Positions 4,449 through 64,000 of a stretch of 64,000 nt of DNA are shown here, in pieces. A program made the position numbers and the translations under genes. The notes under the pieces were generated by a model. That model was not told where the DNA came from, did not search any database, and saw only the letters and a list, made by a program, of their open reading frames with translations. The DNA is taken from contig JAZKFP010000056.1 in NCBI GenBank assembly GCA_040386355.1, positions 50,960-114,959 of the forward strand, given 5' to 3'. The DNA comes from Pseudomonadota bacterium (GTDB lineage Bacteria; Pseudomonadota; Gammaproteobacteria; Pseudomonadales; UBA6940). The stretch's first letter is position 1, and every line of letters begins with the position of its first letter.

Positions 4449-5855
4449 ATGATTCAAGTTGTGTTTAAAAGCTTGAGTGTTATCTTAATTGTATTAAGTA
4501 ATATTCTTTTCATTTCTCAAGCTCAGGCATTACCTTTTTTTAATTCAGAAGCCAATTCAAATAATAAAGTCCCATCGTTAGCGCCAATGCTTTCTAAAGT
4601 GACACCCGCAGTAGTGAATATCTCTACATCTACTCAACGAAATGCGGCAAATCCATTGCTCAACGATCCATTTTTTCGATATTTTTTTAATATTCCAGAT
4701 GGATATTCAGATCAACCTCAACCACCAAAAGCACAAAGCGCAGGTTCTGGTGTAATTATCGACGCTAATAAAGGTATTGTAGTTACTAACTATCATGTGA
4801 TTGCGAGCGCAGATGAAATTGAGGTGGGCCTGCAAAATGGCGCCATGATCAAAGCAGAATTAATTGGTAGTGATCCAGAAGTTGATATTGCAGTTCTTAA
4901 AGTTAAATCCAAAGATTTATCAGAATTACCATTAGCCGATATCACGAATTTACAAGTTGGTGATTTTGTCGTCGCAATTGGCAATCCGTTTGGGTTAGGT
5001 CAAACCGCGACAACTGGAATCGTAAGTGCATTAGGTCGAACTGGTTTAGGAATAGAAGGTTATGAAAATTTTATTCAAACTGACGCATCAATTAATCCAG
5101 GAAATTCTGGGGGCGCTTTAGTAAATCTTAAAGGGGAATTGATCGGAATTAATACGGCCATCCTTGCTCCTTCGGGTGGAAACGTTGGAATTGGTTTCGC
5201 CATTCCAATTGATATGGCGCACAACAGTATTAAACAAATTCTTGAATATGGTGAAGTGAGACGTGGACAATTAGGAATTGTTATTCAAGATTTAACAGCA
5301 GAATTAATTCAAGCTTTTGGTTTACCTGCGCAACAACAAGGCGTGATCGTAGCGGAAGTTATTACGGATTCTCCTGCAGATAAAGCAGGCGTAAAAGATC
5401 GAGACATTGTAACTGCACTTGATGGAAAGCCTATGAAAACTTCCGCACAGTTACGTAATGAAATTGGATTAAGACCGGCAGGAGAAACAATTTCTATTGA
5501 ATTATTACGAGATGGAAAAAAATTAAAAATAAAAGCTAAAACTACGCCATCCCAGCCACCCAAATCACCTTTGTCTCAAAAATCTGACTCGATTAATAAT
5601 AATTTTTTACACGAAAAATTGGCGGGTGCAGTATTAACTGATGATACCCAAGGTGAAGCTGTTATTGTTACTCAAATTCAACCCGGAAGTCCTGCAAATT
5701 ATTCAGGCTTAGAACCAGATGATCAAATTGTTATGGCGAATAATGAACCCGTAAGAAATTTAGATGATCTTAAAAAAAGTATTCAATCTAAGTCAGACCC
5801 ATTATTACTTCGAATAATTCGTGGCGAACGTGCTTTATTTATGGTTTTACAGTAA
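4449..5855 (+). CDS. htrA: Periplasmic HtrA-family serine endoprotease (DegQ/DegP-like) with two PDZ-like C-terminal regions
   Basis: Signal-peptide-like N-terminus (..ISQAQALP). The trypsin-fold triad contexts are present: VVTNYHVI (His), DIAVLKV (Asp), NPGNSGGALVNLKGELIGINTAI (Ser). Two repeated PDZ-type segments follow (..GVIVAEVITDSPADKAGVKDRDIV.. and ..VIVTQIQPGSPANYSGLEPDDQIV..). Confidence 0.92.
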   Translation: MIQVVFKSLSVILIVLSNILFISQAQALPFFNSEANSNNKVPSLAPMLSKVTPAVVNISTSTQRNAANPLLNDPFFRYFFNIPDGYSDQPQPPKAQSAGSGVIIDANKGIVVTNYHVIASADEIEVGLQNGAMIKAELIGSDPEVDIAVLKVKSKDLSELPLADITNLQVGDFVVAIGNPFGLGQTATTGIVSALGRTGLGIEGYENFIQTDASINPGNSGGALVNLKGELIGINTAILAPSGGNVGIGFAIPIDMAHNSIKQILEYGEVRRGQLGIVIQDLTAELIQAFGLPAQQQGVIVAEVITDSPADKAGVKDRDIVTALDGKPMKTSAQLRNEIGLRPAGETISIELLRDGKKLKIKAKTTPSQPPKSPLSQKSDSINNNFLHEKLAGAVLTDDTQGEAVIVTQIQPGSPANYSGLEPDDQIVMANNEPVRNLDDLKKSIQSKSDPLLLRIIRGERALFMVLQ

Positions 5856-8983: not shown

Positions 8984-9060
8984 GGCAATGTAGCTCAGCT
9001 GGTTAGAGCGCGGCATTCATAATGCTGAGGTCGGTGGTTCAAGTCCACTCATTGCTACCA
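8984..9060 (+). tRNA. tRNA with CAU anticodon (elongator Met; an Ile2-lysidine identity cannot be excluded)
   Basis: Cloverleaf read by hand:
- acceptor GGCAATG/CATTGCT (G1-U72 wobble);
- D arm GCTC-AGCTGGTTA-GAGC;
- anticodon arm CGGCA-TTCATAA-TGCTG;
- variable AGGTC;
- T arm GGTGG-TTCAAGT-CCACT;
- encoded ACCA. Confidence 0.9.
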
Positions 9061-42713: not shown

Positions 42714-43230
42714 CCCGATCTGCGTCTAGCGTTTTAGTTGAGCCATCGATTGCGCTTAGAATGGATGAAATAAAGTCAGGAATATTGCTGGCAGCTTCAT
42801 TCTCTTTCGTGTCGATCTTATCAAGCATGCCGATTGATTTAATGACGGCTTCTTTATCCGTGCCGATAAATACTTCTTTAGTATTTCCCTCTTCGTCTAC
42901 GATCGTTTCAATACCGCTCAAAGCCATATTCGCAACGGCTGTTAATGCGTGACGTTTGAAGAAATCACTTGATAATGTGCGCGACAACATTAATTCACGA
43001 TGCTTTGCTAACGTATCTCTCAAGCCGCCTTCTTTCATCATGGCTTTTGCTAATTTAACAATTGCCGAATAACTCGCGCCTTTTTCATCTTGTGACGCGG
43101 CGTTGTACGCTTTATAAATCGATCCCGTTTCAGCAAACGTTATAAAAAACGCTTGATGCTCATCGCTCATTGCGTCGAATAATTCTGAGAGTTCGGGATT
43201 AGCGAATGAGTCGCTCATGACTAACGACAT
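42691..43230 (-). CDS. Putative terminase small subunit (179 aa)
   Basis: Acidic protein directly upstream of, and overlapping, TerL. Called by position only. Confidence 0.5.
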   Translation of the reverse strand: MSLVMSDSFANPELSELFDAMSDEHQAFFITFAETGSIYKAYNAASQDEKGASYSAIVKLAKAMMKEGGLRDTLAKHRELMLSRTLSSDFFKRHALTAVANMALSGIETIVDEEGNTKEVFIGTDKEAVIKSIGMLDKIDTKENEAASNIPDFISSILSAIDGSTKTLDADRDELDDSV

Positions 43231-43706
43231 TAGCTAAGCCCCATGCATTGCTTGAATTCTTTTTGACGCCTAATTATTAATCCTGGAATTTGTTTTCCCT
43301 TTGATTTAGTCCAGCGAAGCATCTCAAGACAAGCGCCCTCGTAATCTTGAGTATTTAATTTTTTAACAAGTGTTGAATTGCAAAATGCTGTTGAACCTAC
43401 GTTATACGTAAATGAAACAAGCGAATCGTATTCATGCTGTGCTAGCGGTACTTTCACACAGCTTTTAATTGAACCTTCAAAAGTACTAACGTCGTTAAGT
43501 GCGCGTGATACAGCGTTAACCGGATCAATTCGTTGCCCCATCTGTACGCCGTGAGTCGTTCCAAATCCAAGCGTTGGAACATCTCCAGGGATTGGAATGT
43601 AGGCTTTATCTGAATAGCCTTCATGAATTATTAATCCAAGAAATGCGCTAGCTGAGATAGCGAGAGAAGCGATTGAGATTCGTAATTTAGAGCGCGGCTC
43701 AATCAT
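43230..43706 (-). CDS. Endolysin, T4/lambda-type lysozyme fold (GH24-like) with N-terminal signal-anchor (SAR-like)
   Basis: ..IHEGYSDKAYIPIPGDVPTLGFGTTHG.. gives Glu, Asp and Thr spacing. EYDSLVSFTYNVGSTAF.. is also present. The N-terminal weakly hydrophobic helix is ISIASLAISASAFLGLII. Confidence 0.85.
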   Translation of the reverse strand: MIEPRSKLRISIASLAISASAFLGLIIHEGYSDKAYIPIPGDVPTLGFGTTHGVQMGQRIDPVNAVSRALNDVSTFEGSIKSCVKVPLAQHEYDSLVSFTYNVGSTAFCNSTLVKKLNTQDYEGACLEMLRWTKSKGKQIPGLIIRRQKEFKQCMGLS

Positions 43707-44173
43707 TGTGATGACCTACTGCCGAACCACCAAGTGACAGCGGTTGTGGTTAGAAACACAGTTGAATTAATTGCCTCAGCGAACAGCTCAGGTGGAATTT
43801 CTGCGCCTGCTGTAAATAATTTGTATGAGATAGAAGTTTGCTGAATTAATAAATAACAAGTAATAAGAGGACGCATTAAGCCGCGTATAGCGTCGATGTA
43901 TTGATTGCCGTATGTAGCTTTGTCTGATTCAAAACTTGCTTGTAATGAGGCTTCTCTTGCGTTAATTAAAGCAATTTCTTTTCCTGTCTCACCTTCAACG
44001 CGAGCTTTTTCTATTTGCTTATCGAAATGCCTTAAATCAATTTCACGCATTTTTAATTGATGCGCGTTTTCTTCTTTCTTACCGACGAACTCAAGACCGG
44101 CTTTGCTTAATGCGCCAATCGTTCCGAGAATCCCACCGCCTGCCGCTGAAGCTAATAAATCAAGCATTAGCAA
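43703..44173 (-). CDS. Putative holin / lysis membrane protein (156 aa)
   Basis: Hydrophobic N-terminal (LLASAAGGGILGTIGAL) and C-terminal segments. It overlaps the endolysin start. Confidence 0.5.
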   Translation of the reverse strand: MLMLDLLASAAGGGILGTIGALSKAGLEFVGKKEENAHQLKMREIDLRHFDKQIEKARVEGETGKEIALINAREASLQASFESDKATYGNQYIDAIRGLMRPLITCYLLIQQTSISYKLFTAGAEIPPELFAEAINSTVFLTTTAVTWWFGSRSSQ

Positions 44174-45147: not shown

Positions 45148-45381
45148 ATGAAAAAACTTAACAAAAATTTTGTTGAAATTATTGAGCACATAAAAGCAGC
45201 TACAAGTATCGATATTAGCCAAATATCATTGGTATCTAATAAGCCAAAGACCTTTTTTCAAGTTGATCAATCTAAATTAAGTGATTTTGAAAAAAGAATG
45301 ATTCTAGATGCTGAGTGGCGCTATAAAAAATTCAGAATTGAAAATAACGGCTTTTTGGGCTGGGCTTTGTTAGCCGCTTAA
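45148..45381 (+). CDS. Hypothetical protein (77 aa)
   Basis: RBS AAGGAG. First gene after the promoter. Followed by the hairpin AGGGAC-N10-GTCCCT. Confidence 0.65.
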   Translation: MKKLNKNFVEIIEHIKAATSIDISQISLVSNKPKTFFQVDQSKLSDFEKRMILDAEWRYKKFRIENNGFLGWALLAA

Positions 45382-45450
45382 TTTTTAACCCAGGGACATC
45401 AAACGAGGTCCCTTTCAACCACCCACTAAAACATCATATGAGGTTTTACA

Positions 45451-45609
45451 ATGAACAAACTACTGCTCACGCTCATTCTAATTATTGCAAACCTAATTGT
45501 TTTTAAAGTCAGCTTCTTACTCGGCTGTTTAATGCTTATATCTGAGGCTTTTATTATCGGTGACGCTCTCGTGTTCCATGTTCGCAACTCAAGAGGTGTA
45601 GCACGATGA
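45451..45609 (+). CDS. Hydrophobic microprotein (52 aa); not in ORF track
   Basis: GAGG lies 7 nt upstream. Sequence MNKLLLTLILIIANLIVFKVSFLLGCLMLISEAFIIGDALVFHVRNSRGVAR*. Stop/start overlap (ATGA) with the next ORF. Confidence 0.55.
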   Translation: MNKLLLTLILIIANLIVFKVSFLLGCLMLISEAFIIGDALVFHVRNSRGVAR

Positions 45610-45749
45610 ACTCACTATTCCCAAACGCTCGTGGTTCTTTCGCAATTCTATCAATCGCATGTTGCTGCTTAGTGGCTTTACAAGAACCTAAAATATTTTC
45701 AGCTATGGCGCTTATGGCTCTTGCTGTAGCCATGCTTAGATCAAACTGA
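45606..45749 (+). CDS. Hydrophobic microprotein (47 aa); not in ORF track
   Basis: Sequence MNSLFPNARGSFAILSIACCCLVALQEPKIFSAMALMALAVAMLRSN*. Translationally coupled to the previous ORF. Confidence 0.5.
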   Translation: MNSLFPNARGSFAILSIACCCLVALQEPKIFSAMALMALAVAMLRSN

Positions 45750-45756
45750 GGATTCA

Positions 45757-45963
45757 ATGACAAAAATAGAACAACCTACACCACTACAAATCAAATCCCT
45801 TCGTGAGAGCGTGGGGCTAACTCAGAAACAAGCGGCTGAATTATTAGACGCAACGGAGCGAACTTGGCGAAGATGGGAATCTGATTCTGATTCAATTAAT
45901 ATTCCGAAATCTAAGTGGGAATTGTTTCTAATGAAAACGGTTACGATGCCTAAGAAAAAATAA
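45757..45963 (+). CDS. XRE-family helix-turn-helix protein (68 aa)
   Basis: ..IKSLRESVGLTQKQAAELLDATERTWRRWES.. is a classic HTH_XRE pattern. RBS GAGG. Confidence 0.75.
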   Translation: MTKIEQPTPLQIKSLRESVGLTQKQAAELLDATERTWRRWESDSDSINIPKSKWELFLMKTVTMPKKK

Positions 45964-45975
45964 TTAAAAAACTTA

Positions 45976-46473
45976 ATGAAATATACTTACTTGCAGGGCG
46001 TTGCGTCCTGTACTTTAGTTATTAATATAAGCCAGCACTTAATGTATAAAATAGAACCCTACAAGCTCAAAATCATTAACGATCATCAGATGATTAAATC
46101 AACAAACTATTGGGAATCGTTTCAAGCTCTCAATGGCTGGGTTTATTTAAGCTGGGGTGGCGGTTGTGCTCGTCTATTAATTCCGAAAGTAAGCTACAAA
46201 TATCTTATTAAAATGCGCACAGTGAAAAACATTGTTATTACTAAAGGCAGTTTTAAAGATAAATTAAATTGCTTTGAGATTATGTTCGAAGATGGTTCAG
46301 AGTCACCCTTTTCAATTATCATTCAACCTGAGCAAACCGATAAACTTTCATGGGATGACAAAGGCAAATTTCCTTTTACGGTTTGGACTGAACAAGGCAT
46401 GTTTAAAAAATTCTGGGGCTGGTATCGAACGGCTGTAAAACTTCCTTACTTAATGCCTCTTAAAAATATATGA
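45976..46473 (+). CDS. Hypothetical Trp-rich protein (165 aa)
   Basis: Track ORF. The start could be the internal Met at 46042. No motif. Confidence 0.6.
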   Translation: MKYTYLQGVASCTLVINISQHLMYKIEPYKLKIINDHQMIKSTNYWESFQALNGWVYLSWGGGCARLLIPKVSYKYLIKMRTVKNIVITKGSFKDKLNCFEIMFEDGSESPFSIIIQPEQTDKLSWDDKGKFPFTVWTEQGMFKKFWGWYRTAVKLPYLMPLKNI

Positions 46474-46682
46474 ACCTTCTCTACAAAAAAGCGCGCTACA
46501 TAAATAAACTTTTGAACGGGCCGGATGATAAAGAAGTATTTCGGCTTGGCGGCTTAGAGGTAAATAGCTCAAGCTTACAAGCTTGGCGTGCTGGCGTTGA
46601 AAAGTCTAACTACAGAGACATTACAAACGAACAGCTCGCGGCTTATATGGATGGTTTAATTAAGATTCTTACTAAAGATTAA
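46470..46682 (+). CDS. Hypothetical protein (70 aa)
   Basis: ATGA-coupled to the previous gene. Confidence 0.6.
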   Translation: MNLLYKKARYINKLLNGPDDKEVFRLGGLEVNSSSLQAWRAGVEKSNYRDITNEQLAAYMDGLIKILTKD

Positions 46683-52757: not shown

Positions 52758-53545
52758 AATTGCGGCCCTAAATCCATATCCCTATAACGGTCTTGCTGTT
52801 CCTGAGCCTTTCGAATTTCTTCGGTTCGGTCTCTTGGCAATGGGTTGCGCAAATTTGCAATAATGCTTGCGTAACGCGATCTATTTTTCTTAGCTAAACC
52901 TTCATCAATCGGAGGCGGTAAATACTTAAGGCCGTCAGGAAATTGTTTAAGATCGTTTAGGAAATACGTTTCATCGCCGTTATTTTTAGTCCCTGCTAAA
53001 CGTAAATTTTTATTTACTAAATCGGTACCGATTAACCCTTCGCGTCGAGCCTCGATCGTTTTATCGCGTATTACGCTTGCAGATTCTTCTCGGTTTAATC
53101 CAGTTGGTTGAGATAAAAACCAACGCGGTCTTTTTCCGGTAATTCGGGCAACTTTTAATTCTTGCTTGTAGGCTTCGATAAAAATCATATGCCCTTGAAT
53201 TAAATCACCACGGTCTAGCGCATCTTTGGCAATACCCCACGCCCTACTCATTTCGTCGGTTAAATATTCGCAATCCATTTCCTGTTTTGGAATTTTTGCC
53301 CAGGCCGTTTGTGGTTCTGGATGGCCGTCAGAAATACCCATGCACTCGATAACGTGCGAAGGATTTAACGTTCCCCATGTAACTTTTTTCAAAGCCTGAA
53401 TAAGCGCTGCACAAACTAATTCGAAGGGATATTCTTCAAGCATTTCCCACCAAGTCAGCAAAGCATCAGGCGAATAATCAACCTTGTACGTTTTGAATTT
53501 TGGCTGAACAAATTTAAAAAAATCTTGTTGCTGGTCTTGTCTCAC
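52754..53545 (-). CDS. Hypothetical protein (263 aa) downstream of the replication initiator; possible replication accessory/helicase-loading factor
   Basis: Position is analogous to lambda P. There is no Walker motif. Function is inferred from synteny only. Confidence 0.5.
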   Translation of the reverse strand: MRQDQQQDFFKFVQPKFKTYKVDYSPDALLTWWEMLEEYPFELVCAALIQALKKVTWGTLNPSHVIECMGISDGHPEPQTAWAKIPKQEMDCEYLTDEMSRAWGIAKDALDRGDLIQGHMIFIEAYKQELKVARITGKRPRWFLSQPTGLNREESASVIRDKTIEARREGLIGTDLVNKNLRLAGTKNNGDETYFLNDLKQFPDGLKYLPPPIDEGLAKKNRSRYASIIANLRNPLPRDRTEEIRKAQEQQDRYRDMDLGPQL

Positions 53546-54498
53546 GCCACACCCCCAATCCGATCCGAGTAAATAACCTGGCCTTCAAAGCAATCGTTTT
53601 GGGCACCAAACACGGATGGATCAACGTAATTTTTAATATCGAAATTCGGGTCGGACATCATCGCCGCGAATTTTTCGTCGTCAGTCATCGGTTTTGCAGA
53701 ACCTAATTCGCCGACGTAGTTATTAAAATTTTCAGCACTGAAAATCGTCTTGGGTCGCAAGTACTCGTACATTTTCGGATTGGTTAGCCAGGCTTTGCAT
53801 TTCAAATCGATCACGGCCATCAGCGTGGTTTCTGTGTGTTTCTCACGTAATCGCCCTATGATTAAATTCAAATTCGCTTTGACGTGCTCGAATCGCTTAC
53901 CCGATTTTAAATTCAGGTAATCCAAGATGCGTTTTGCAGGAATTAAAAAATTATTTTGATTTTTTTGAGGGGGGTCGTCGGGTTCGCCCGACATATCAGT
54001 TTCTTTTTTTAAACCTTTTTCTAATTCTTCTCCTAAACCTTTACCTATACCTAATCCTTTACCTATACCTTTATGGTTGAACGTCTGTTGCAACGGATGT
54101 TGAACGCCCGTTGAACGTCCGTTGAACGCCTGTTGAGTTTGAGTTGAATTATCATCAGAATTATCAATTTTTCTTTTATTAGCAGAAGCACGACCAGCAG
54201 TAATAGCTTTCTCTAATTTGTCTTTTGCCTTTTCTAATTCAGCTTCGATGCGTTTATGTTGCCACTTACCGTCAACGACGTTGAAGAACTGTTGCAACGT
54301 CTGTTCAACGGATGCCCAACGTTCGTTGGAAAATCTGCAAATTCTTGCAAGTCTTTCAGGTTCAGCAGGCAATGCTTTTCCGATTTGCCAATACGCCATA
54401 ATTAAACGCATATAAGCTAAATCTTCATCATCGGTTAAATAGATTGTGTCTGATAAATAATCATTCACATAAAAAGGCATGTATGGAATTCTGCTCAT
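53542..54498 (-). CDS. Replication initiator-like protein (DUF1376/YdaU-like N-domain + conserved phage replication C-terminal domain), 318 aa
   Basis: - N-terminus MSRIPYMPFYVNDYLSDTIYLTDDEDLAYMRLIMAYWQ.
- C-terminus ..ILDYLNLKSGKRFEHVKANLNLIIGRLREKHTETTLMAVIDLKCKAWL..
- A GIGKGLGIGKGLG linker.
- The gene contains 11-bp-periodic iterons. Confidence 0.7.
   Translation of the reverse strand: MSRIPYMPFYVNDYLSDTIYLTDDEDLAYMRLIMAYWQIGKALPAEPERLARICRFSNERWASVEQTLQQFFNVVDGKWQHKRIEAELEKAKDKLEKAITAGRASANKRKIDNSDDNSTQTQQAFNGRSTGVQHPLQQTFNHKGIGKGLGIGKGLGEELEKGLKKETDMSGEPDDPPQKNQNNFLIPAKRILDYLNLKSGKRFEHVKANLNLIIGRLREKHTETTLMAVIDLKCKAWLTNPKMYEYLRPKTIFSAENFNNYVGELGSAKPMTDDEKFAAMMSDPNFDIKNYVDPSVFGAQNDCFEGQVIYSDRIGGVA
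54038..54073. repeat. 18-bp tandem duplication (CCTTTACCTATACCTAAT x2, encodes GIGKGL GIGKGL)
   Basis: 54038-54055 and 54056-54073, directly abutting the iteron array. Confidence 0.8.
54076..54148. repeat. Iteron array: 7 copies of GTTGAACG-like 8-mers at 11-12-bp spacing (candidate ori)
   Basis: Repeat starts at 54076, 54087 (GTTGCAACG), 54099, 54110, 54121, 54132 (GTTGAG) and 54143 (GTTGAA). The spacing is not a multiple of 3. An AT-rich stretch follows. Confidence 0.75.
54271..54321. repeat. Second, looser cluster of G(T)TNAACG-like motifs at about 10-12-bp spacing
   Basis: GTCAACG 54271, GTTGAAG 54280, GTTGCAACG 54291, GTTCAACG 54303, CCCAACG 54315. It shares AACGTCTGTT(G)CAACGGATG with the first array. 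Confidence 0.55.
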
Positions 54499-54930: not shown

Positions 54931-55101
54931 TTAAACTTTCTCTTTCGGTACTCGCACAACTGCATTACTTCGTAAAAATGGAACTTCTTTATCCGCAATA
55001 CATCCAACTCGTACTTTCTTATCTGTAACGCTTAAAACTTTAATTTCTATATCGTTTCCGATCGTTACTGATTGGCCTGGCTTGAGCAGTAAAATCAACA
55101 T
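54931..55101 (-). CDS. csrA: CsrA/RsmA-family RNA-binding protein paralogue (56 aa); not in ORF track
   Basis: RBS GGAGG. MLILLLKPGQSVTIGNDIEIKVLSVTDKKVRVGCIADKEVPFLRSNAVVRVPKEKV* aligns by eye with E. coli CsrA [47 protein letters not shown]. Matches include Leu4, the IG.D(I/V) core, VR(I/V)G, and Arg at position 44. Confidence 0.8.
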   Translation of the reverse strand: MLILLLKPGQSVTIGNDIEIKVLSVTDKKVRVGCIADKEVPFLRSNAVVRVPKEKV

Positions 55102-55178
55102 AAAACCTCCATGTTTTTGTTATTTAATTTAAATAGTCAGAGGCTCAGTGACCGCCACGATCTTTTATGAGCCCCCGT

Positions 55179-55421
55179 CTATTTAAAAAATATTTCGCGT
55201 TCTAGTAGTAATTTTTTGCGATATGCATTGCCACCGACGACAAAACTATTCATCAGTTTTTCTTTACCGATTAACCGAAAATCCAGGTCAAGATCGTGAT
55301 TAGTGCCATGGCAAAAATCAGAAAAATATTCAGAAATGAAATGAGAATCCCCATTAAATTGAGCATTGATTGCATCCATGTTTATCTTTTTTTCCATAAA
55401 AATAGCTTTCTCAGCTATCAT
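55179..55421 (-). CDS. Hypothetical protein (80 aa)
   Basis: Track ORF, second gene of the early operon. Confidence 0.6.
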   Translation of the reverse strand: MIAEKAIFMEKKINMDAINAQFNGDSHFISEYFSDFCHGTNHDLDLDFRLIGKEKLMNSFVVGGNAYRKKLLLEREIFFK

Positions 55422-55460
55422 TCCCGCAAATAAAAAAGCCCGAGCAAATTTATAGGTTGC

Positions 55461-55670
55461 TCAGGCGGTAGTTTTTTCTTTATATTTCTCTAAGACGTTA
55501 TTTAACGCCGTATATAAGTCGTAACGGCAAGACTTGAATAATCCCCTTTCAAGTCTGCTAATGGTTGCTTGAGTGCAACCTACATCTTCAGCGCATACAA
55601 GATTACTAATCTCGTTTTGACTGAGACCTAAGTTTCTAAGTTGTTGAACTATCTGCGTTGGTTTTATCAT
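55461..55670 (-). CDS. Cro-like HTH repressor (69 aa)
   Basis: Track ORF 55461-55772 trimmed to Met35 (the upstream part would be translated from the operator region). ..LRNLGLSQNEISNLVCAEDVGCTQATISRLERG.. is an HTH. It is divergent from the cI-like gene. Confidence 0.75.
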   Translation of the reverse strand: MIKPTQIVQQLRNLGLSQNEISNLVCAEDVGCTQATISRLERGLFKSCRYDLYTALNNVLEKYKEKTTA

Positions 55671-55676
55671 TCCTTG

Positions 55677-55705
55677 ATAGTAATACCCGCGCGTATATTC
55701 GTCAA
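55677..55705 (-). promoter_or_regulatory. PR-like early promoter (drives cro-like operon), apparently leaderless
   Basis: Minus strand: TTGACG (55705-55700), a 17-nt spacer, then TACTAT (55682-55677). The A of the cro ATG is the 7th nt after the -10. Operators O1 and O2 overlap the spacer and the -35. Confidence 0.6.
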
Positions 55706-55744
55706 TACTTGTATGTATTTTTATTAACCGATACTTTGACGTAT
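55683..55744. promoter_or_regulatory. Right operator triplet: three 14-bp ATAC-N6-GTAT sites
   Basis: O1 ATACCCGCGCGTAT 55683-55696. O2 ATACTTGTATGTAT 55705-55718. O3 ATACTTTGACGTAT 55731-55744. All lie between the divergent cro-like and cI-like genes. Confidence 0.8.
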
Positions 55745-55747
55745 ATT
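55719..55747 (+). promoter_or_regulatory. PRM-like maintenance promoter for the cI-like gene, apparently leaderless
   Basis: -10 TATATT (55742-55747) overlaps O3. The -35 is poor (TTTTAT 55719-55724) and abuts O2. The A of the cI ATG (55754) is the 7th nt after the -10. Confidence 0.45.
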
Positions 55748-55753
55748 TCGGCC

Positions 55754-56473
55754 ATGAAAAAACTACGATCATTTAGCCAAGCAATTTTAATTCTTGCGCG
55801 TCGCCTTCCGGCCGTCGTCAATCCTGATGGGTCTATCAATAAAACTGAGCTTGCTAAGCTGGCGGGTCTCAACCAACCCACTATGCAAAGAATATTGAAG
55901 GAAGGTGAACAGAAAACGATAAGCACTGCCTCAAGAGATAGGCTTGCAAAGTTGCTTAAATGCACGCCTGGCCAGATTGAAGGTATAGAACCGATACCTG
56001 AAATTGATGGTGACCTACCAACAAATAGTGCCGCAGATTATTTTACTGAATTTGTTACAAAAAATGCTTTGACAGCTACTAGCATTCCTATGTTATATCT
56101 GACCGAATTATCAGGAGTTGATAGTTCTCACGCAGCACAAGAACTGCGGAAGGATAAAACAAGGAAGATGTTACCTATGCCAATTACTTTGGGCTTATCT
56201 GAATCAGCTTTTTTGCTGGTCATTGATGAAAAAATTGAAACCGAAAAATTTATGACAGGCGAATCTGTTGTTATAGATCCTGAAGCAGTCCCTAAGACTG
56301 GAGGCTACGTATTAATAAAAGTCGAAGATGCCTTGATAGCCGTGTTTCGATCTGCAAAGACTGATAGCGGTTATAGATTTATTCCTGAAAGTAATCTCTT
56401 CCAAGAAATACATATGAATAGCCTTGAATGGCCATTTATAGGGGTTTGTCGTGCTGGATTAAGAGAGTTTTAA
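55754..56473 (+). CDS. cI-like repressor: N-terminal HTH + C-terminal S24/LexA-like domain (239 aa)
   Basis: Track ORF 55658-56473 trimmed to Met33. ..INKTELAKLAGLNQPTMQRILKEG.. is an HTH. The C-terminal beta-rich part ..FMTGESVVIDPEAVPKTGGYVLIKVEDALIAVFRS.. resembles the S24 autopeptidase fold, though the catalytic residues are not certain. Confidence 0.7.
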   Translation: MKKLRSFSQAILILARRLPAVVNPDGSINKTELAKLAGLNQPTMQRILKEGEQKTISTASRDRLAKLLKCTPGQIEGIEPIPEIDGDLPTNSAADYFTEFVTKNALTATSIPMLYLTELSGVDSSHAAQELRKDKTRKMLPMPITLGLSESAFLLVIDEKIETEKFMTGESVVIDPEAVPKTGGYVLIKVEDALIAVFRSAKTDSGYRFIPESNLFQEIHMNSLEWPFIGVCRAGLREF

Positions 56474-56489
56474 TTTATTAAGGAATGTC

Positions 56490-56768
56490 ATGGATGACGA
56501 TGACGATGACGATTTTTTTGGCCGCAACCCAGCAACTCTTGATGATTTAGATTCAGAATTAACCGATATAAAGAACAATATCCATTATTTACGAAGCGAC
56601 TTAAAAGAATTCTCGGAAAAAAGCCGAGAGCTTAACGGTTATTCATTAAGTTCAATTACAGATCTACTCCTGTCGATCAATAATAATATTGCAACCGCCG
56701 CGAATCTCTTACTTTTTATCTGTGTGATGATCTGTGTGATTTTCGGGTTTATTTTCATAAAGTTGTAA
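56490..56768 (+). CDS. Tail-anchored membrane protein with poly-Asp N-terminus (92 aa)
   Basis: MDDDDDDDFFG.., a coiled-coil middle, and a C-terminal TM LLLFICVMICVIFGFIFI. It starts 17 nt after the cI stop. Confidence 0.65.
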   Translation: MDDDDDDDFFGRNPATLDDLDSELTDIKNNIHYLRSDLKEFSEKSRELNGYSLSSITDLLLSINNNIATAANLLLFICVMICVIFGFIFIKL

Positions 56769-56795
56769 AATTAAAAGATTAACTAAGGATTTGGT

Positions 56796-57131
56796 ATGAG
56801 TGAGCAAGATCAGTTTGAAGTGCCTTTTGAGAAGTCGCCTACGTTAGAGCCAACTACTTTTAAAGATGTACTTTTTAGTCAGCTGCCGAATAAAGCTGGG
56901 TATCTTCTTTCTTTCTACATTGAAAGCTTAGATATTATTTCTACAGTCTTTGAAAAAGAGAGCGAAAGAAAATTTAAAACAAAAGAGTACAATATTAATC
57001 CACAGCGGCGGATAGTATCGCAATTACTAGCAAATGATGACGCAATGAAAAATCTTACGAGCATCTGTATTGATTGGGCAAAACGGACTCATCAAGAAGA
57101 GCTGTTATCTGAACTTCTTAACCATACCTAA
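56796..57131 (+). CDS. Hypothetical soluble protein (111 aa)
   Basis: RBS AAGGA. Middle gene of the cI-linked trio. Confidence 0.65.
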   Translation: MSEQDQFEVPFEKSPTLEPTTFKDVLFSQLPNKAGYLLSFYIESLDIISTVFEKESERKFKTKEYNINPQRRIVSQLLANDDAMKNLTSICIDWAKRTHQEELLSELLNHT

Positions 57132-57151
57132 ACTATTTTAAATAGCTTCAT

Positions 57152-57778
57152 ATGCAGCAATATACAATTGATACATCAAAACCATTAGACACTACACTTA
57201 TAAGTAGCTTTTCCAGTGACACTTATGCAATATCCTCTTCCGATGTAAGACATGAAGAATTAGATCGTCTTTACTTAATTGATAGTGCCCTTTTAGCGAA
57301 AGGAACCATCTATATGGGCAATCGATCAAGAAAGATGTATAAACCAGAATCAGAAATAGATAAAACAGGTGAGCTTCTATCACAAATAAGTGATGAGGAT
57401 ACAGCGATGACAGCACTGATAATTTCGAAAATTGATGAACTTAAATCTGATTTAAAGAATGAGCTACATGCTGTAGAAGGTAGGCTAAATACCGCCATTC
57501 ATACCTTAAAAATTGATTTAAACAAATCAATTGATGATTGTAAAACCGAGATTGGAAAATCAGAAGGAAGGCTTGAAGGCAATCTTAAAAACACGAAAGA
57601 TGATTTACAAAGATTCATTGGCATTCTAGTAGTGATCGCCATAGCTGCTTTTGGTGGATTGGCTGTATGGACTAAAGATTCAAATGGATCTTCGGTTGAG
57701 TCAGTTGAAGCTTCAAATGCTAATTTAGAAACAATAGCAAAATCATTGGTTGATATAAAAAGGTCTGTTGATAAATAA
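57152..57778 (+). CDS. Coiled-coil protein with C-terminal TM anchor (208 aa), XhlA/DUF1640-like architecture
   Basis: Heptad-rich ..ISKIDELKSDLKNELHAVEGRLNTAIHTLKIDLNKSIDDCKTEIGKSEGRLEGNLKNTKDDLQRF followed by the TM IGILVVIAIAAFGGLAVW. The likeness is in architecture only. Confidence 0.6.
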   Translation: MQQYTIDTSKPLDTTLISSFSSDTYAISSSDVRHEELDRLYLIDSALLAKGTIYMGNRSRKMYKPESEIDKTGELLSQISDEDTAMTALIISKIDELKSDLKNELHAVEGRLNTAIHTLKIDLNKSIDDCKTEIGKSEGRLEGNLKNTKDDLQRFIGILVVIAIAAFGGLAVWTKDSNGSSVESVEASNANLETIAKSLVDIKRSVDK

Positions 57779-57794
57779 TTAATGAAATCCAATC

Positions 57795-57819
57795 AAACCG
57801 CCCTCTTGGCGGTTTTTTT
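57795..57819 (+). terminator. Intrinsic terminator ending the cI operon
   Basis: AAACCGCC-CTCTT-GGCGGTTT followed by a T-run. Confidence 0.8.
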
Positions 57820-57833
57820 ATGCCTAAATTTTA

Positions 57834-57891
57834 GCGGCTAGAGCTGTTGGCCGCACAACTCAGAGCTAGCCCCCTAGCTGTCAACCTAGCC
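57834..57891. other. GC-rich block with two hairpins and a motif shared with the 188-nt element
   Basis: GCGGC(57834-38)/GCCGC(57850-54). AGCTAG-CCCC-CTAGCT (57864-57879). TTGGCCGCACAAC (57847-59) and CAACCTAGCC (57882-91) match CTGGCCTACACAACCTAGCC at 62029-62048. Confidence 0.6.
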
Positions 57892-57959
57892 TGTAAAAAC
57901 TACTTATAACCCTATCAGAACTTATTATATAGTTACGGTCATTTATTTAATTAAATAAA

Positions 57960-58030
57960 TACGTACGCGTATTGCTAATAATAATACTTGCACGTATAGT
58001 TAACTCATCGAAGCAATACACAAACGTATC
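57960..58030. promoter_or_regulatory. Left operator triplet: three more ATAC-N6-GTAT sites
   Basis: ATACGTACGCGTAT 57960-57973. ATACTTGCACGTAT 57985-57998. ATACACAAACGTAT 58017-58030. All lie upstream of the recombination operon. Confidence 0.8.
57973..58001 (+). promoter_or_regulatory. PL-like promoter of the recombination/early-left operon
   Basis: TTGCTA (57973-57978), a 17-nt spacer, then TATAGT (57996-58001). The middle operator overlaps the spacer and the -10. Confidence 0.55.
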
Positions 58031-58056
58031 AATCAATAACGGCAAGGACTACAGCC

Positions 58057-58275
58057 ATGAACATCTCAACTGAACGTAAATCAGGTTACACGATGGAAGA
58101 AATGGACGCAATTCTCGAAGCCAATAATGAATCGATTCCCGAAGAAAATATGGACGATTTAATGCGCGGTGCACAGCACTTAAATGAAAAGATTAATTGT
58201 TTCTTAGCAGGGTTAGCATTAGGCGCAGCTTCGATTGTTTTTGTTGCAACGTACATTTTCCCAATTCAAATGTGA
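58057..58275 (+). CDS. Small protein with C-terminal TM helix (72 aa)
   Basis: RBS AAGGA. ..FLAGLALGAASIVFVATYIF.. Confidence 0.65.
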   Translation: MNISTERKSGYTMEEMDAILEANNESIPEENMDDLMRGAQHLNEKINCFLAGLALGAASIVFVATYIFPIQM

Positions 58276-58284
58276 GTTAAGAAA

Positions 58285-58563
58285 ATGAGAATCGATTTAA
58301 CAGATGAAACAGAAATACCGATTCATCAAGCATTGTTTAATGCAATTGATCCTGAAGAAGAATTTGATTGTACGTTTTGCAGATTTTACAAAGAAAGCCC
58401 GAATTACGACGAATTTGGATATGAATTAGAACCCGATAGAACTTGTATAAATAGAAATTATTTATTGTGTGAATCAGTAAATAGAAAAATGAAAGAAGCA
58501 ATGAAAGAAATTAACGAAGCAAGAAAATCTAAAGGCATGAAAGTTAGCGAGTTATTTATATGA
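58285..58563 (+). CDS. Hypothetical protein (92 aa)
   Basis: Track ORF, co-oriented. Confidence 0.65.
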   Translation: MRIDLTDETEIPIHQALFNAIDPEEEFDCTFCRFYKESPNYDEFGYELEPDRTCINRNYLLCESVNRKMKEAMKEINEARKSKGMKVSELFI

Positions 58564-58754
58564 AACTATTAAACAGACCGCTGTATTGCTTGTACTTCAT
58601 CATGCTTTTTTGCGTAGAAGTTATTTTTCAAATACGTAATTTCGCTATTCAAAAATTAAAAACAAGAATTAGCACAAGAAAATTAATTTTAAGGCAGCTC
58701 AATAATATCGCACGTCAACAAGAACTTAAACGAAGAATGGAGAAATTAGGATGA
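58560..58754 (+). CDS. Hypothetical basic protein (64 aa)
   Basis: Track ORF, ATGA-coupled. Confidence 0.55.
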   Translation: MKLLNRPLYCLYFIMLFCVEVIFQIRNFAIQKLKTRISTRKLILRQLNNIARQQELKRRMEKLG

Positions 58755-63768: not shown

Positions 63769-64000
63769 ATGAAAACCACAGACATGAGCAAATTGCATTT
63801 AGCCAAGCGGGTTTATTTACGTAATGGAAATATAAGAGAAATAATTCATGTGAGCATGAATAGCGGTAATGAAGATTTCCCCATTTGTATGACTTACCAA
63901 AATGCTTTCAAAGCAGAGTATAAAAATAACGGGCAATGCGGAAGTAAATTAAGCGAGCTAGACATCATCGCTTTTGATATTGATGAACCGCTCTCAAATT
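63769..64000 (+). CDS. Hypothetical protein, 3' end beyond the window
   Basis: RBS AAGGA. Open frame MKTTDMSKLHLAKRVYLRNGNIREIIHVSMNSGNEDFPICMTYQNAFKAEYKNNGQCGSKLSELDIIAFDIDEPLSN.. runs off the window. Confidence 0.55.
   Translation, partial: MKTTDMSKLHLAKRVYLRNGNIREIIHVSMNSGNEDFPICMTYQNAFKAEYKNNGQCGSKLSELDIIAFDIDEPLSN

Follow-up and report, generated by a model that had tools for sequence, protein, structure and literature searches.

A three-gene module for membrane and coiled-coil proteins between the repressor gene and the early-left operators of a gammaproteobacterial lambdoid prophage: a candidate lysogen-expressed cargo

The interval between cI and N of lambdoid phages is a mosaic hotspot whose expression comes from one of the prophage promoters most active in lysogeny (PMC8585504). 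It holds rexAB in phage lambda and bstA in prophage BTP1, both of them abortive-infection systems expressed from the repressor locus (PMC8585504). Prophage defence pairs composed of a cytoplasmic and a membrane protein recur in actinobacteriophages (PMC7542560). In lambda, RexA moreover binds CI and aids the change from lysogeny to lytic growth, and RexB modulates this activity (bioRxiv 10.1101/2021.04.19.439022). Here, we describe three genes, g1, g2 and g3 (together the trio), which occupy the corresponding slot in a prophage of an uncultured gammaproteobacterium (GenBank assembly GCA_040386355.1, contig JAZKFP010000056.1, positions 50,960 to 114,959 of the forward strand). This stretch of 64,000 nucleotides is referred to as the window, and all positions are counted from its first letter.

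In this study, we show that the trio lies directly downstream of a cI-like repressor gene, between the two operator clusters of a lambda-type immunity region, and ends at an intrinsic terminator. It encodes two single-pass membrane proteins, one of them with a long coiled-coil stalk, and a soluble partner. Host genes (a DegP/Q-family protease, catalase HPII, signal recognition particle (SRP) RNA and a tRNA-Met) fill the first 9 kb of the window. Because the prophage adjoins them, the element is an integrated lambdoid prophage and the sampled cell is a lysogen. The trio is very probably cargo of the repressor operon of this prophage and expressed in the lysogen. Its position and architecture, the only basis for a functional assignment, tentatively suggest phage exclusion or abortive infection. 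It is a plausible and credible candidate for a repressor-linked, lysogen-expressed cargo; its role in defence is a hypothesis.

A 14-bp palindrome, ATAC-N6-GTAT, is found in exactly six copies in the window as against 0.55 expected, and none of 100 shuffles reached six. Three copies form the right operator (OR) and three the left operator (OL; Table 1); the centres of neighbouring copies are 22 and 26 bp apart in the former, and 25 and 32 bp apart in the latter. A repeat search also recovers them (families D1, D2 and D5 in OR; D2, D5 and I5 in OL). Since three operators precede cI and three follow the terminator of the trio, OR and OL bracket cI together with the trio, which is thereby placed within an immunity region of the lambda type. 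As in such regions, the repressor and cro genes diverge and have several operators in common, and the early-left promoter has an operator cluster of its own. An earlier reading made from the DNA letters alone (the sequence-only reading) had placed the genes in a rexAB-type slot; this placement is confirmed, and the three plus three operators around cI and the trio strengthen it.

The repressor, with ATG 55754 as its most likely start, carries a helix-turn-helix (HTH) domain at its N-terminus (Pfam HTH_26, E 6e-8), and its residues 28-225 match phrog_4 'transcriptional repressor' (E 1.4e-5). The match to Peptidase_S24 (E 7e-4, 19.7 bits) stays below the cutoff of 23.3 bits, and inspection of the sequence revealed no G-x-S-M nucleophile motif. 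The repressor may therefore not be self-cleaving, in which case induction would proceed via an antirepressor or another route. There was no significant match of the repressor in the PDB, nor to an approximate sequence of lambda cI, and a word-seeded search of 5.8e9 proteins returned only the repressor itself. Given its six operators, the repressor is evidently functional. The cro-like gene is divergent from it, and its start, ATG 55670, agrees with the PHROG alignment.

Both cI and cro are seemingly leaderless: their ATGs are each preceded by a -10-like hexamer (cI, TATATT; cro, TACTAT) that ends at a distance of 6 nt, and a usable Shine-Dalgarno spacing is found for neither gene (55742-55756 on the plus strand, 55668-55682 on the minus strand). 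A Shine-Dalgarno sequence is missing before the cI ATG altogether. About 42 bp separate the cI ATG from the centre of the middle OR site (O2) upstream of it, which resembles the position of OR2 relative to the maintenance promoter (PRM) in lambda. PRM of lambda is a leaderless promoter activated by CI. By analogy, the promoter of cI here is probably of the PRM type, leaderless and repressor-activated. The PR-like promoter is a putative one and would drive cro and the replication genes; OR overlaps it as well as the TATATT hexamer of cI. A promoter scan of positions 55000-58600 gave 5 sites as compared to 12.5 expected in shuffles and hence no promoter-like excess. With three plus three operators, a weak repressor-proximal -35 and an apparently leaderless cI, the locus repeats the regulatory geometry of lambda in a lineage far removed from it, with no sequence similarity detectable.

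Between 55.4 and 58.3 kb, the repressor gene and the trio form four tightly packed open reading frames (ORFs) on the plus strand. Gaps are 16 nt between the repressor and g1, 27 nt between g1 and g2 and 20 nt between g2 and g3, and a folding check found no hairpin or terminator in any of them. The unit is closed by a GC-rich hairpin (57795-57815, folding energy -11.6 kcal/mol) followed by a T-run up to 57822, as expected of an intrinsic terminator at the end of a transcription unit. The sequence-only reading had described a three-gene module which follows the cI-like gene and ends at a terminator. The ORFs are as it described them, with the first gap measuring 16 nt and the terminator extending from 57795 to 57822. 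Co-transcription of the trio with cI from the PRM-like promoter in the lysogen is highly probable on this evidence.

Table 1. Features of the immunity region (positions in the window; a dot marks features without strand)
Feature	Position	Strand	Description and basis
cro-like HTH regulator	55461..55670	-	phrog_6831 'transcriptional regulator' E 1.7e-14; weak HTH_3 match
PR-like promoter TTGACG-17-TACTAT	55677..55705	-	consensus match only, 9/12; overlaps O1 and O2
OR: three ATAC-N6-GTAT palindromes	55683-55696, 55705-55718, 55731-55744	.	between the divergent cro-like and cI-like genes
PRM-like -10 hexamer TATATT	55742..55747	+	read from the sequence; ends 6 nt before the cI ATG; weak -35
cI-like repressor, 239 aa	55754..56473	+	N-terminal HTH and sub-threshold S24-like C-terminal domain
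g1, 92-aa tail-anchored membrane protein	56490..56768	+	N-terminal poly-Asp run and amphipathic helical region, followed by a membrane helix (about 70-90) and a final K-L
g2, 111-aa soluble acidic all-helical protein	56796..57131	+	sequence and AlphaFold2 single-sequence model of low confidence
g3, 208-aa bitopic membrane protein	57152..57778	+	N-terminal region 1-65, stalk 66-153, membrane helix 155-173, tail
Intrinsic terminator closing the cI-g1-g2-g3 unit	57795..57822	+	8-bp stem with 5 G-C pairs, 5-nt loop, T-run
OL: three ATAC-N6-GTAT palindromes	57959-57972, 57984-57997, 58016-58029	.	after the trio terminator
PL-like promoter TTGCTA-17-TATAGT	57972..58000	+	consensus scan, 9/12; overlaps OL; heads the early-left operon

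The three ORFs are not chance open frames. Their open stretches total 421 codons, as compared to a mean of 158 and a maximum of 278 in 2000 shuffles of this DNA (35% GC). When a codon model trained on the other genes of the prophage was used to score all six frames, the annotated frame scored best for g1 (+0.11 bits per codon), g2 (+0.085) and g3 (+0.17), with the five other frames at -0.05 to -1.4. The same model gives +0.125 for cI, +0.06 for cro and 0.29 +/- 0.09 for the other phage genes (structural, replication). Ribosome-binding sites of the AAGGA type precede g1 and g2 at correct spacing, the one of g1 lying 6 nt ahead of the ATG. The true N-terminus of g3 is uncertain, because no Shine-Dalgarno sequence precedes its annotated start (ATG 57152) and GAGGA lies 7 nt upstream of another ATG of the same frame, at 57407 (M86; positions 57395-57409). 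From this it follows that g3 may be made as a 123-aa form consisting of stalk and membrane helix, or as two in-frame products. A 13-bp palindrome, CTATTTTAAATAG, present as a single copy in the window, is located at 57133-57145, just ahead of the g3 start codon. A Logan contig from the same sequencing run is identical and therefore offers no polymorphisms for a test of selection.

Two further observations concern the end of the unit. In a search for non-coding RNA, Rfam gave only a sub-threshold isrK-like match in the trio region (57731-57819, plus strand; 23 bits against a gathering score of 50, E 0.039), which spans the end of g3 and the terminator. isrK is an Hfq-binding small RNA of prophages; the match is probably merely the terminator hairpin. 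In the spacer after the terminator (57823-57890), a stretch of locally high GC, four CTAG motifs are embedded in short inverted repeats; the spacer folds no better than its shuffles (z = -1.5).

All three proteins of the trio are acidic. The sequence-only reading had given g1 a poly-Asp N-terminus and a C-terminal transmembrane (TM) anchor, which agrees with our analysis. The protein starts with MDDDDDDDFF, residues 15-66 form an amphipathic helical region with a period of 3.6 (0/1000 shuffles), and residues 72-90 form a hydrophobic segment (Kyte-Doolittle 19-residue mean 2.97) with only K-L beyond. As had also been proposed, g2 is soluble and contains no hydrophobic segment (Kyte-Doolittle maximum 1.23). 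Its single-sequence AlphaFold2 model is all-helical at low confidence (predicted local distance difference test (pLDDT) 53).

The picture changed for g3. It was counted, together with g1, as one of two tail-anchored components, which holds for g1; g3 has a single, internal hydrophobic segment (155-173, Kyte-Doolittle 2.57) followed by a 35-aa tail consisting of a loop and an amphipathic helix (182-207). Because of this tail, g3 is bitopic rather than strictly tail-anchored. It was further called heptad-rich, which did not hold up. In the stalk (66-153) the heptad period of 3.5 has a power of 0.02, equalled by 92% of shuffles, whereas the period of 11/3 has a power of 2.65 that 0/1000 shuffles reach. 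The stalk is thus a hendecad one, with about eight units of 11 residues and hydrophobic residues at positions 3, 7 and 10 of each, which is the pattern described for hendecads (PMC4786415). AlphaFold2 without alignment predicts one continuous helix from 66 to 173 (block-mean pLDDT 79-96 over 81-160) and gives residues 1-65 with low confidence. According to the positive-inside rule, the bulk of both g1 and g3 is predicted to be cytoplasmic, leaving outside only 2 residues of g1 and 35 of g3. Such a cytoplasmic bulk fits better with sensing in the cytoplasm than with a periplasmic block. There is no paralogy between g1 and g3.

The trio has no homologues anywhere we searched. In the word-seeded search of 5.8 billion proteins, g2 and g3 matched only themselves, and the self-matches of g2, g3 and the repressor are annotated as hypothetical proteins of a 'Pseudomonadota bacterium' metagenome-assembled genome. 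For g2 only, an exhaustive HMMER search of 1.84 billion representatives returned the protein itself and two artefacts, which were rejected as repeat-inflated: an ORF of 929 aa with tandem repeats, in which 11 stretches matched, and a protein of 2771 aa with Ig repeats. Across the IMG/VR, GTDB genome and JGI metagenome contig collections searched, no relatives of cI, g1 or g3 were found (g1 and g3 none in JGI, g1 none in IMG/VR). In tblastn searches of 50,697 phage records (INPHARED), g1 remained without a match at E <= 1, whatever g2 and g3 drew at E <= 10 was noise, and blastn with the whole immunity region gave no match or noise. PDB sequence searches with cI, g1, g2 and g3 yielded only noise. 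Pfam, PHROGs, PADLOC and NCBIfam, queried with whole proteins and with split domains, contained nothing significant for the trio, in line with the statement of the sequence-only reading that it matches no defence family which that reading could name. The best PADLOC-DB v2 E-values, 0.0052 (the coiled-coil region of ZorA), 0.0078 (AbiEi) and 0.035 (CorA-like), correspond to 12-14 bits and are noise. Faint matches to Apolipoprotein (E 0.003), between g1 and phrog_1193 'hemolysin' (E 0.026) and between the C-terminus of g3 and a PHROG of Rz-like spanins (E 0.17) belong to the same class: these weak family matches reflect helical periodicity and a membrane helix. The g2 model was too poor for a fold search. 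A Foldseek search with the long helix of the g3 model against BFVD and the PDB brought nothing at E <= 0.001.

Comparison with other phages was of little help for the slot as well. A survey via 18 loci with a Bet homologue and 2 cro loci was dropped, as these have a single gene in common with our prophage and possess unrelated, mostly high-GC, differently organised early regions; phages that share Bet or cro share nothing else in this region (18 + 2 loci). The host DegP/Q-family protease (4449-5855, plus strand) is at most 60% identical to any of 185,579 GTDB r232 species representatives, and its best matches are scattered over Pseudomonadales, Cellvibrionales and other Gammaproteobacteria. 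By this measure the host, with 39% GC, is a deep-branching and poorly sampled gammaproteobacterium. As the repressor is equally orphan and the host deep-branching, the orphan status of the trio is less remarkable; it largely reflects a poorly sampled lineage and is weak evidence of novelty.

How does the trio compare with the described systems? It is located like lambda rexA-rexB of the PRM operon, i.e. directly 3' of cI in the repressor operon, within OR-OL and with a terminator before the early-left promoter (PL). Like the Rex-type pairs (lambda rexA-rexB; in actinobacteriophages Sbash gp30/31, CarolAnn gp43/44, Butters gp30/31), it combines membrane proteins with a cytoplasmic partner, and expression in the lysogen is expected for it as for them. 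However, there is no sequence similarity to the Rex-type systems, and the trio has three genes instead of two. The Rex family is defined by a DUF4747/RexA-like cytoplasmic protein and a RexB-like protein with four transmembrane segments (4-TM; PMC7542560). In contrast, g2 shows no Pfam family at E <= 1 and no PADLOC RexA match, and g1 and g3 each have one hydrophobic segment, long cytoplasmic helices and no PADLOC RexB match. As it contains neither a DUF4747 nor a 4-TM protein, the trio falls outside the Rex family. BstA of Salmonella prophage BTP1 resembles the trio in being encoded downstream of the cI locus, presumably under the repressor's promoter, with its own Rho-independent terminator (PMC8585504). 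Unlike the trio, BstA is a single soluble protein acting at phage replication sites, and neither PADLOC nor Pfam reveals similarity between the two.

With regard to architecture, DUF1640/CCDC90-like proteins (PF07798) and XhlA (PF10779) come closest, since they carry a cytoplasmic non-heptad coiled-coil stalk and a C-terminal membrane helix, overall as in the trio. The sequence-only reading had compared g3 with both in architecture only, and rightly so: the architecture agrees and no profile matches. PF07798 reaches E 1.2 with g3 (9.4 bits against a cutoff of 33.5 bits), and the beta-layer motif [aliphatic]-A-T-K-[polar]-[DE], found at the start of DUF1640/CCDC90-like stalks (PMC4786415), is absent from g3. 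A match to XhlA, a protein of lysis cassettes and not of immunity regions, was absent from the listings for the two g3 halves (E <= 10) and for g1 (E <= 1). The C-terminal ends of six PHROGs (phrog_14825, 10785, 9415, 21734, 9105 and 6701) weakly match the stalk and membrane helix of g3 with borderline or insignificant E-values (1e-3 to 0.16), and g1 touches the same region of phrog_9105 as g3. Since none of these families has a known function, the resemblance, which is driven by helical periodicity, carries no functional information.

We propose the following working model, whose defence part is tentative but the likeliest of the functions considered. The trio would share the transcript of the cI-like gene, made from a promoter of the PRM type that is probably leaderless and activated by the repressor, and transcription would end at the terminator before OL and PL, so that the trio is made in the lysogen while the lytic genes are silent. 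Judged from the sequence, g1 and g3 are single-pass proteins of the inner membrane with nearly all of their mass in the cytoplasm, the roughly 90-residue stalk of g3 running into its membrane helix. Through the stalks, g3 could oligomerise, together with g1, into a membrane-embedded bundle. As the stalk helix is predicted to be continuous with the membrane helix, it would, once oligomerised, be the kind of element able to gate ion flow. The sensing of an infection cue would fall to g2 and/or to the cytoplasmic parts of g1 and g3, upon which the membrane helices would compromise the membrane barrier, as in Rex-like abortive infection. In a less likely variant, the 35-aa periplasmic tail of g3 would block DNA entry. 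We favour the Rex-like logic because nearly all of the protein mass is predicted to be cytoplasmic, which suits the sensing of an intracellular cue. In its most specific form, this model describes a three-component, Rex-analogous exclusion system without sequence relatives, with a stalk-bundled gated pore (g3, with g1), g2 as sensor or gatekeeper and expression from the maintenance promoter in a prophage of an uncultured deep-branching gammaproteobacterium; in this full detail it is a speculative and rather doubtful proposal.

Several points weigh against this reading. The slot is not always devoted to defence, as other lambdoid phages carry unrelated cargo there. The single-pass proteins of the trio are unlike the 4-TM channels of the characterised Rex-type systems, and no defence model of PADLOC-DB v2 is significantly matched by any component. 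With no homologues in any of the collections searched, there is no signal of conservation, co-occurrence or selection. The codon scores of the trio lie in the range of those of cI and cro, which is low for this phage. The GC content of the trio is not distinct from that of the rest of the phage (z = -1.3), so that its composition does not mark it as an acquired moron (a gene that a phage carries as an extra insertion). Finally, RexA and RexB themselves also modulate the CI/Cro switch, which shows that the slot does not serve defence only (bioRxiv 10.1101/2021.04.19.439022).

Among the alternatives, a lysogenic-conversion or addiction cassette unrelated to defence survives best. The trio would then be a membrane toxin with its antidote, or would alter the physiology of the host envelope to the benefit of the lysogen. 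Such a cassette follows the same expression logic as cargo of the repressor operon; small single-pass hydrophobic proteins are characteristic of membrane toxins, the part of antidote could be played by a small acidic soluble partner, and nothing links the three acidic proteins to the sensing of phages. On the other hand, those occupants of the slot that were tested are mostly anti-phage (PMC8585504), Pfam, NCBIfam and PADLOC reveal no toxin-antitoxin or other family signature, and a hendecad stalk of 90 residues is unusual for a simple membrane toxin. We regard this explanation as rather unlikely.

Modulation of the lysis-lysogeny switch or of induction is less probable still. Here, the transition to lytic growth would be tuned through the repressor or Cro, either by their binding to g2 or to the cytoplasmic parts of g1 and g3 or by their being tethered to the membrane in this way. 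The activity of lambda RexA/RexB (bioRxiv 10.1101/2021.04.19.439022) sets a precedent, the trio is co-encoded with the repressor, and induction may need accessory factors, as the S24-like domain of the repressor is below the cutoff and lacks a visible G-x-S-M. However, no DNA-binding or repressor-binding domain is detectable in the trio, two membrane anchors are unnecessary for such a role, and in lambda this activity coexists with exclusion instead of replacing it.

Some or all of the ORFs might also be non-functional, i.e. decaying or spurious ORFs in a lineage-specific spacer between cI and OL. In favour of this, no member of the trio has a homologue, the codon scores are under the phage mean, the annotated start of g3 has no Shine-Dalgarno sequence, and the structure predictions have low confidence for residues 1-65 of g3 and for the larger part of g2. 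Against it stand the number of open codons far above the shuffle maximum, the annotated frame as the best one in all three cases with scores on par with cI and cro, and the good Shine-Dalgarno sequences of g1 and g2 at correct spacing. The features are also coherent, with strong membrane helices and a significant hendecad periodicity in a tight operon closed by a terminator, and the repressor is likewise orphan yet evidently functional. Altogether, we consider non-functional ORFs very unlikely.

That the trio encodes lysis- or morphogenesis-associated membrane proteins (XhlA-like, holin or spanin accessory) adjoining the repressor by chance is suggested by the coiled-coil and membrane-helix architecture and by the faint phrog_1193 and spanin matches, but is highly improbable, since these E-values are not significant, XhlA is unlisted, an endolysin and a holin-like ORF lie 12 kb off beside the terminase, and the trio is placed on the repressor transcript within the operator-bounded region, separated by a terminator from lytic transcription. 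The sequence-only reading had named clear homology to lysis or morphogenesis proteins as refuting its proposal; no such homology was found, and the endolysin and structural genes are elsewhere.

If the trio protects lysogens, it would add to the known systems a defence architecture of single-pass coiled-coil proteins as compared to the 4-TM channel with a DUF4747 sensor found in every known Rex-type system. In that case, searching just downstream of prophage repressors would reveal defence genes to which methods based on homology (PADLOC and DefenseFinder, for example) are blind. Should the trio have no phenotype, it would simply join the orphan, lineage-specific cargoes of an already known mosaic hotspot.

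The PL-like promoter is followed by an early-left operon on the plus strand with small ORFs, an exonuclease VIII (phrog_412, E 1.5e-68), a Bet-like annealing protein (phrog_252, E 3.5e-71) and an ORF resembling single-stranded DNA-binding protein (SSB) whose C-terminus ends in an acidic ...DGIPF tip. The first ORF of this operon (58057-58275, plus strand) encodes an acidic 72-aa protein with a C-terminal membrane helix, tail-anchored like g1 but dissimilar to it and not a paralogue. Because its expression would be lytic only, it could serve in host takeover; a role in self-immunity against the trio is a more speculative option. Beyond cro, replication genes (53542-54498, minus strand) match primosomal or replication-initiation PHROGs (E 1e-35). 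The genes for the large terminase subunit, head and tail, replication and recombination were all identified away from the trio.

The endolysin (43230-43706, minus strand; phrog_7, E 3e-43) adjoins the terminase, 12 kb from the trio. It has a hydrophobic N-terminal segment, ISIASLAISASAFLGLII, which suggests an endolysin of the signal-anchor-release (SAR) type. Upstream of it, a 156-aa ORF (43703-44173) looks holin-like in sequence and matches only phrog_6637, a family of unknown function (E 8.5e-17). Between the lysis cassette and the replication module, a small island on the plus strand (45148-46682) interrupts the minus-strand genes of the prophage. It comprises a 77-aa ORF, a 68-aa Xre-type HTH protein (HTH_31, E 3e-6; weak matches to Aca2/YdiL and Xre antitoxins), a 165-aa orphan and a 70-aa ORF, and is a second candidate for a moron (here a block of extra genes), a toxin-antitoxin locus or an anti-defence locus.

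Towards the left end of the prophage, a Ro60/TROVE and vWA RNA-binding protein is encoded between the tRNA-Met and the tail genes (12324-13643, plus strand; TROVE E 1.7e-18, phrog_850 E 9e-52), and no Y-RNA or other Rfam family was detected near this gene at gathering thresholds. The SRP RNA is located at 1676-1772 on the minus strand. The other end of the prophage and the integrase are placed beyond position 64000. At the transition from host to prophage lies a tRNA-Met(CAT) (8984-9060, plus strand), which is likely the attachment-site tRNA.

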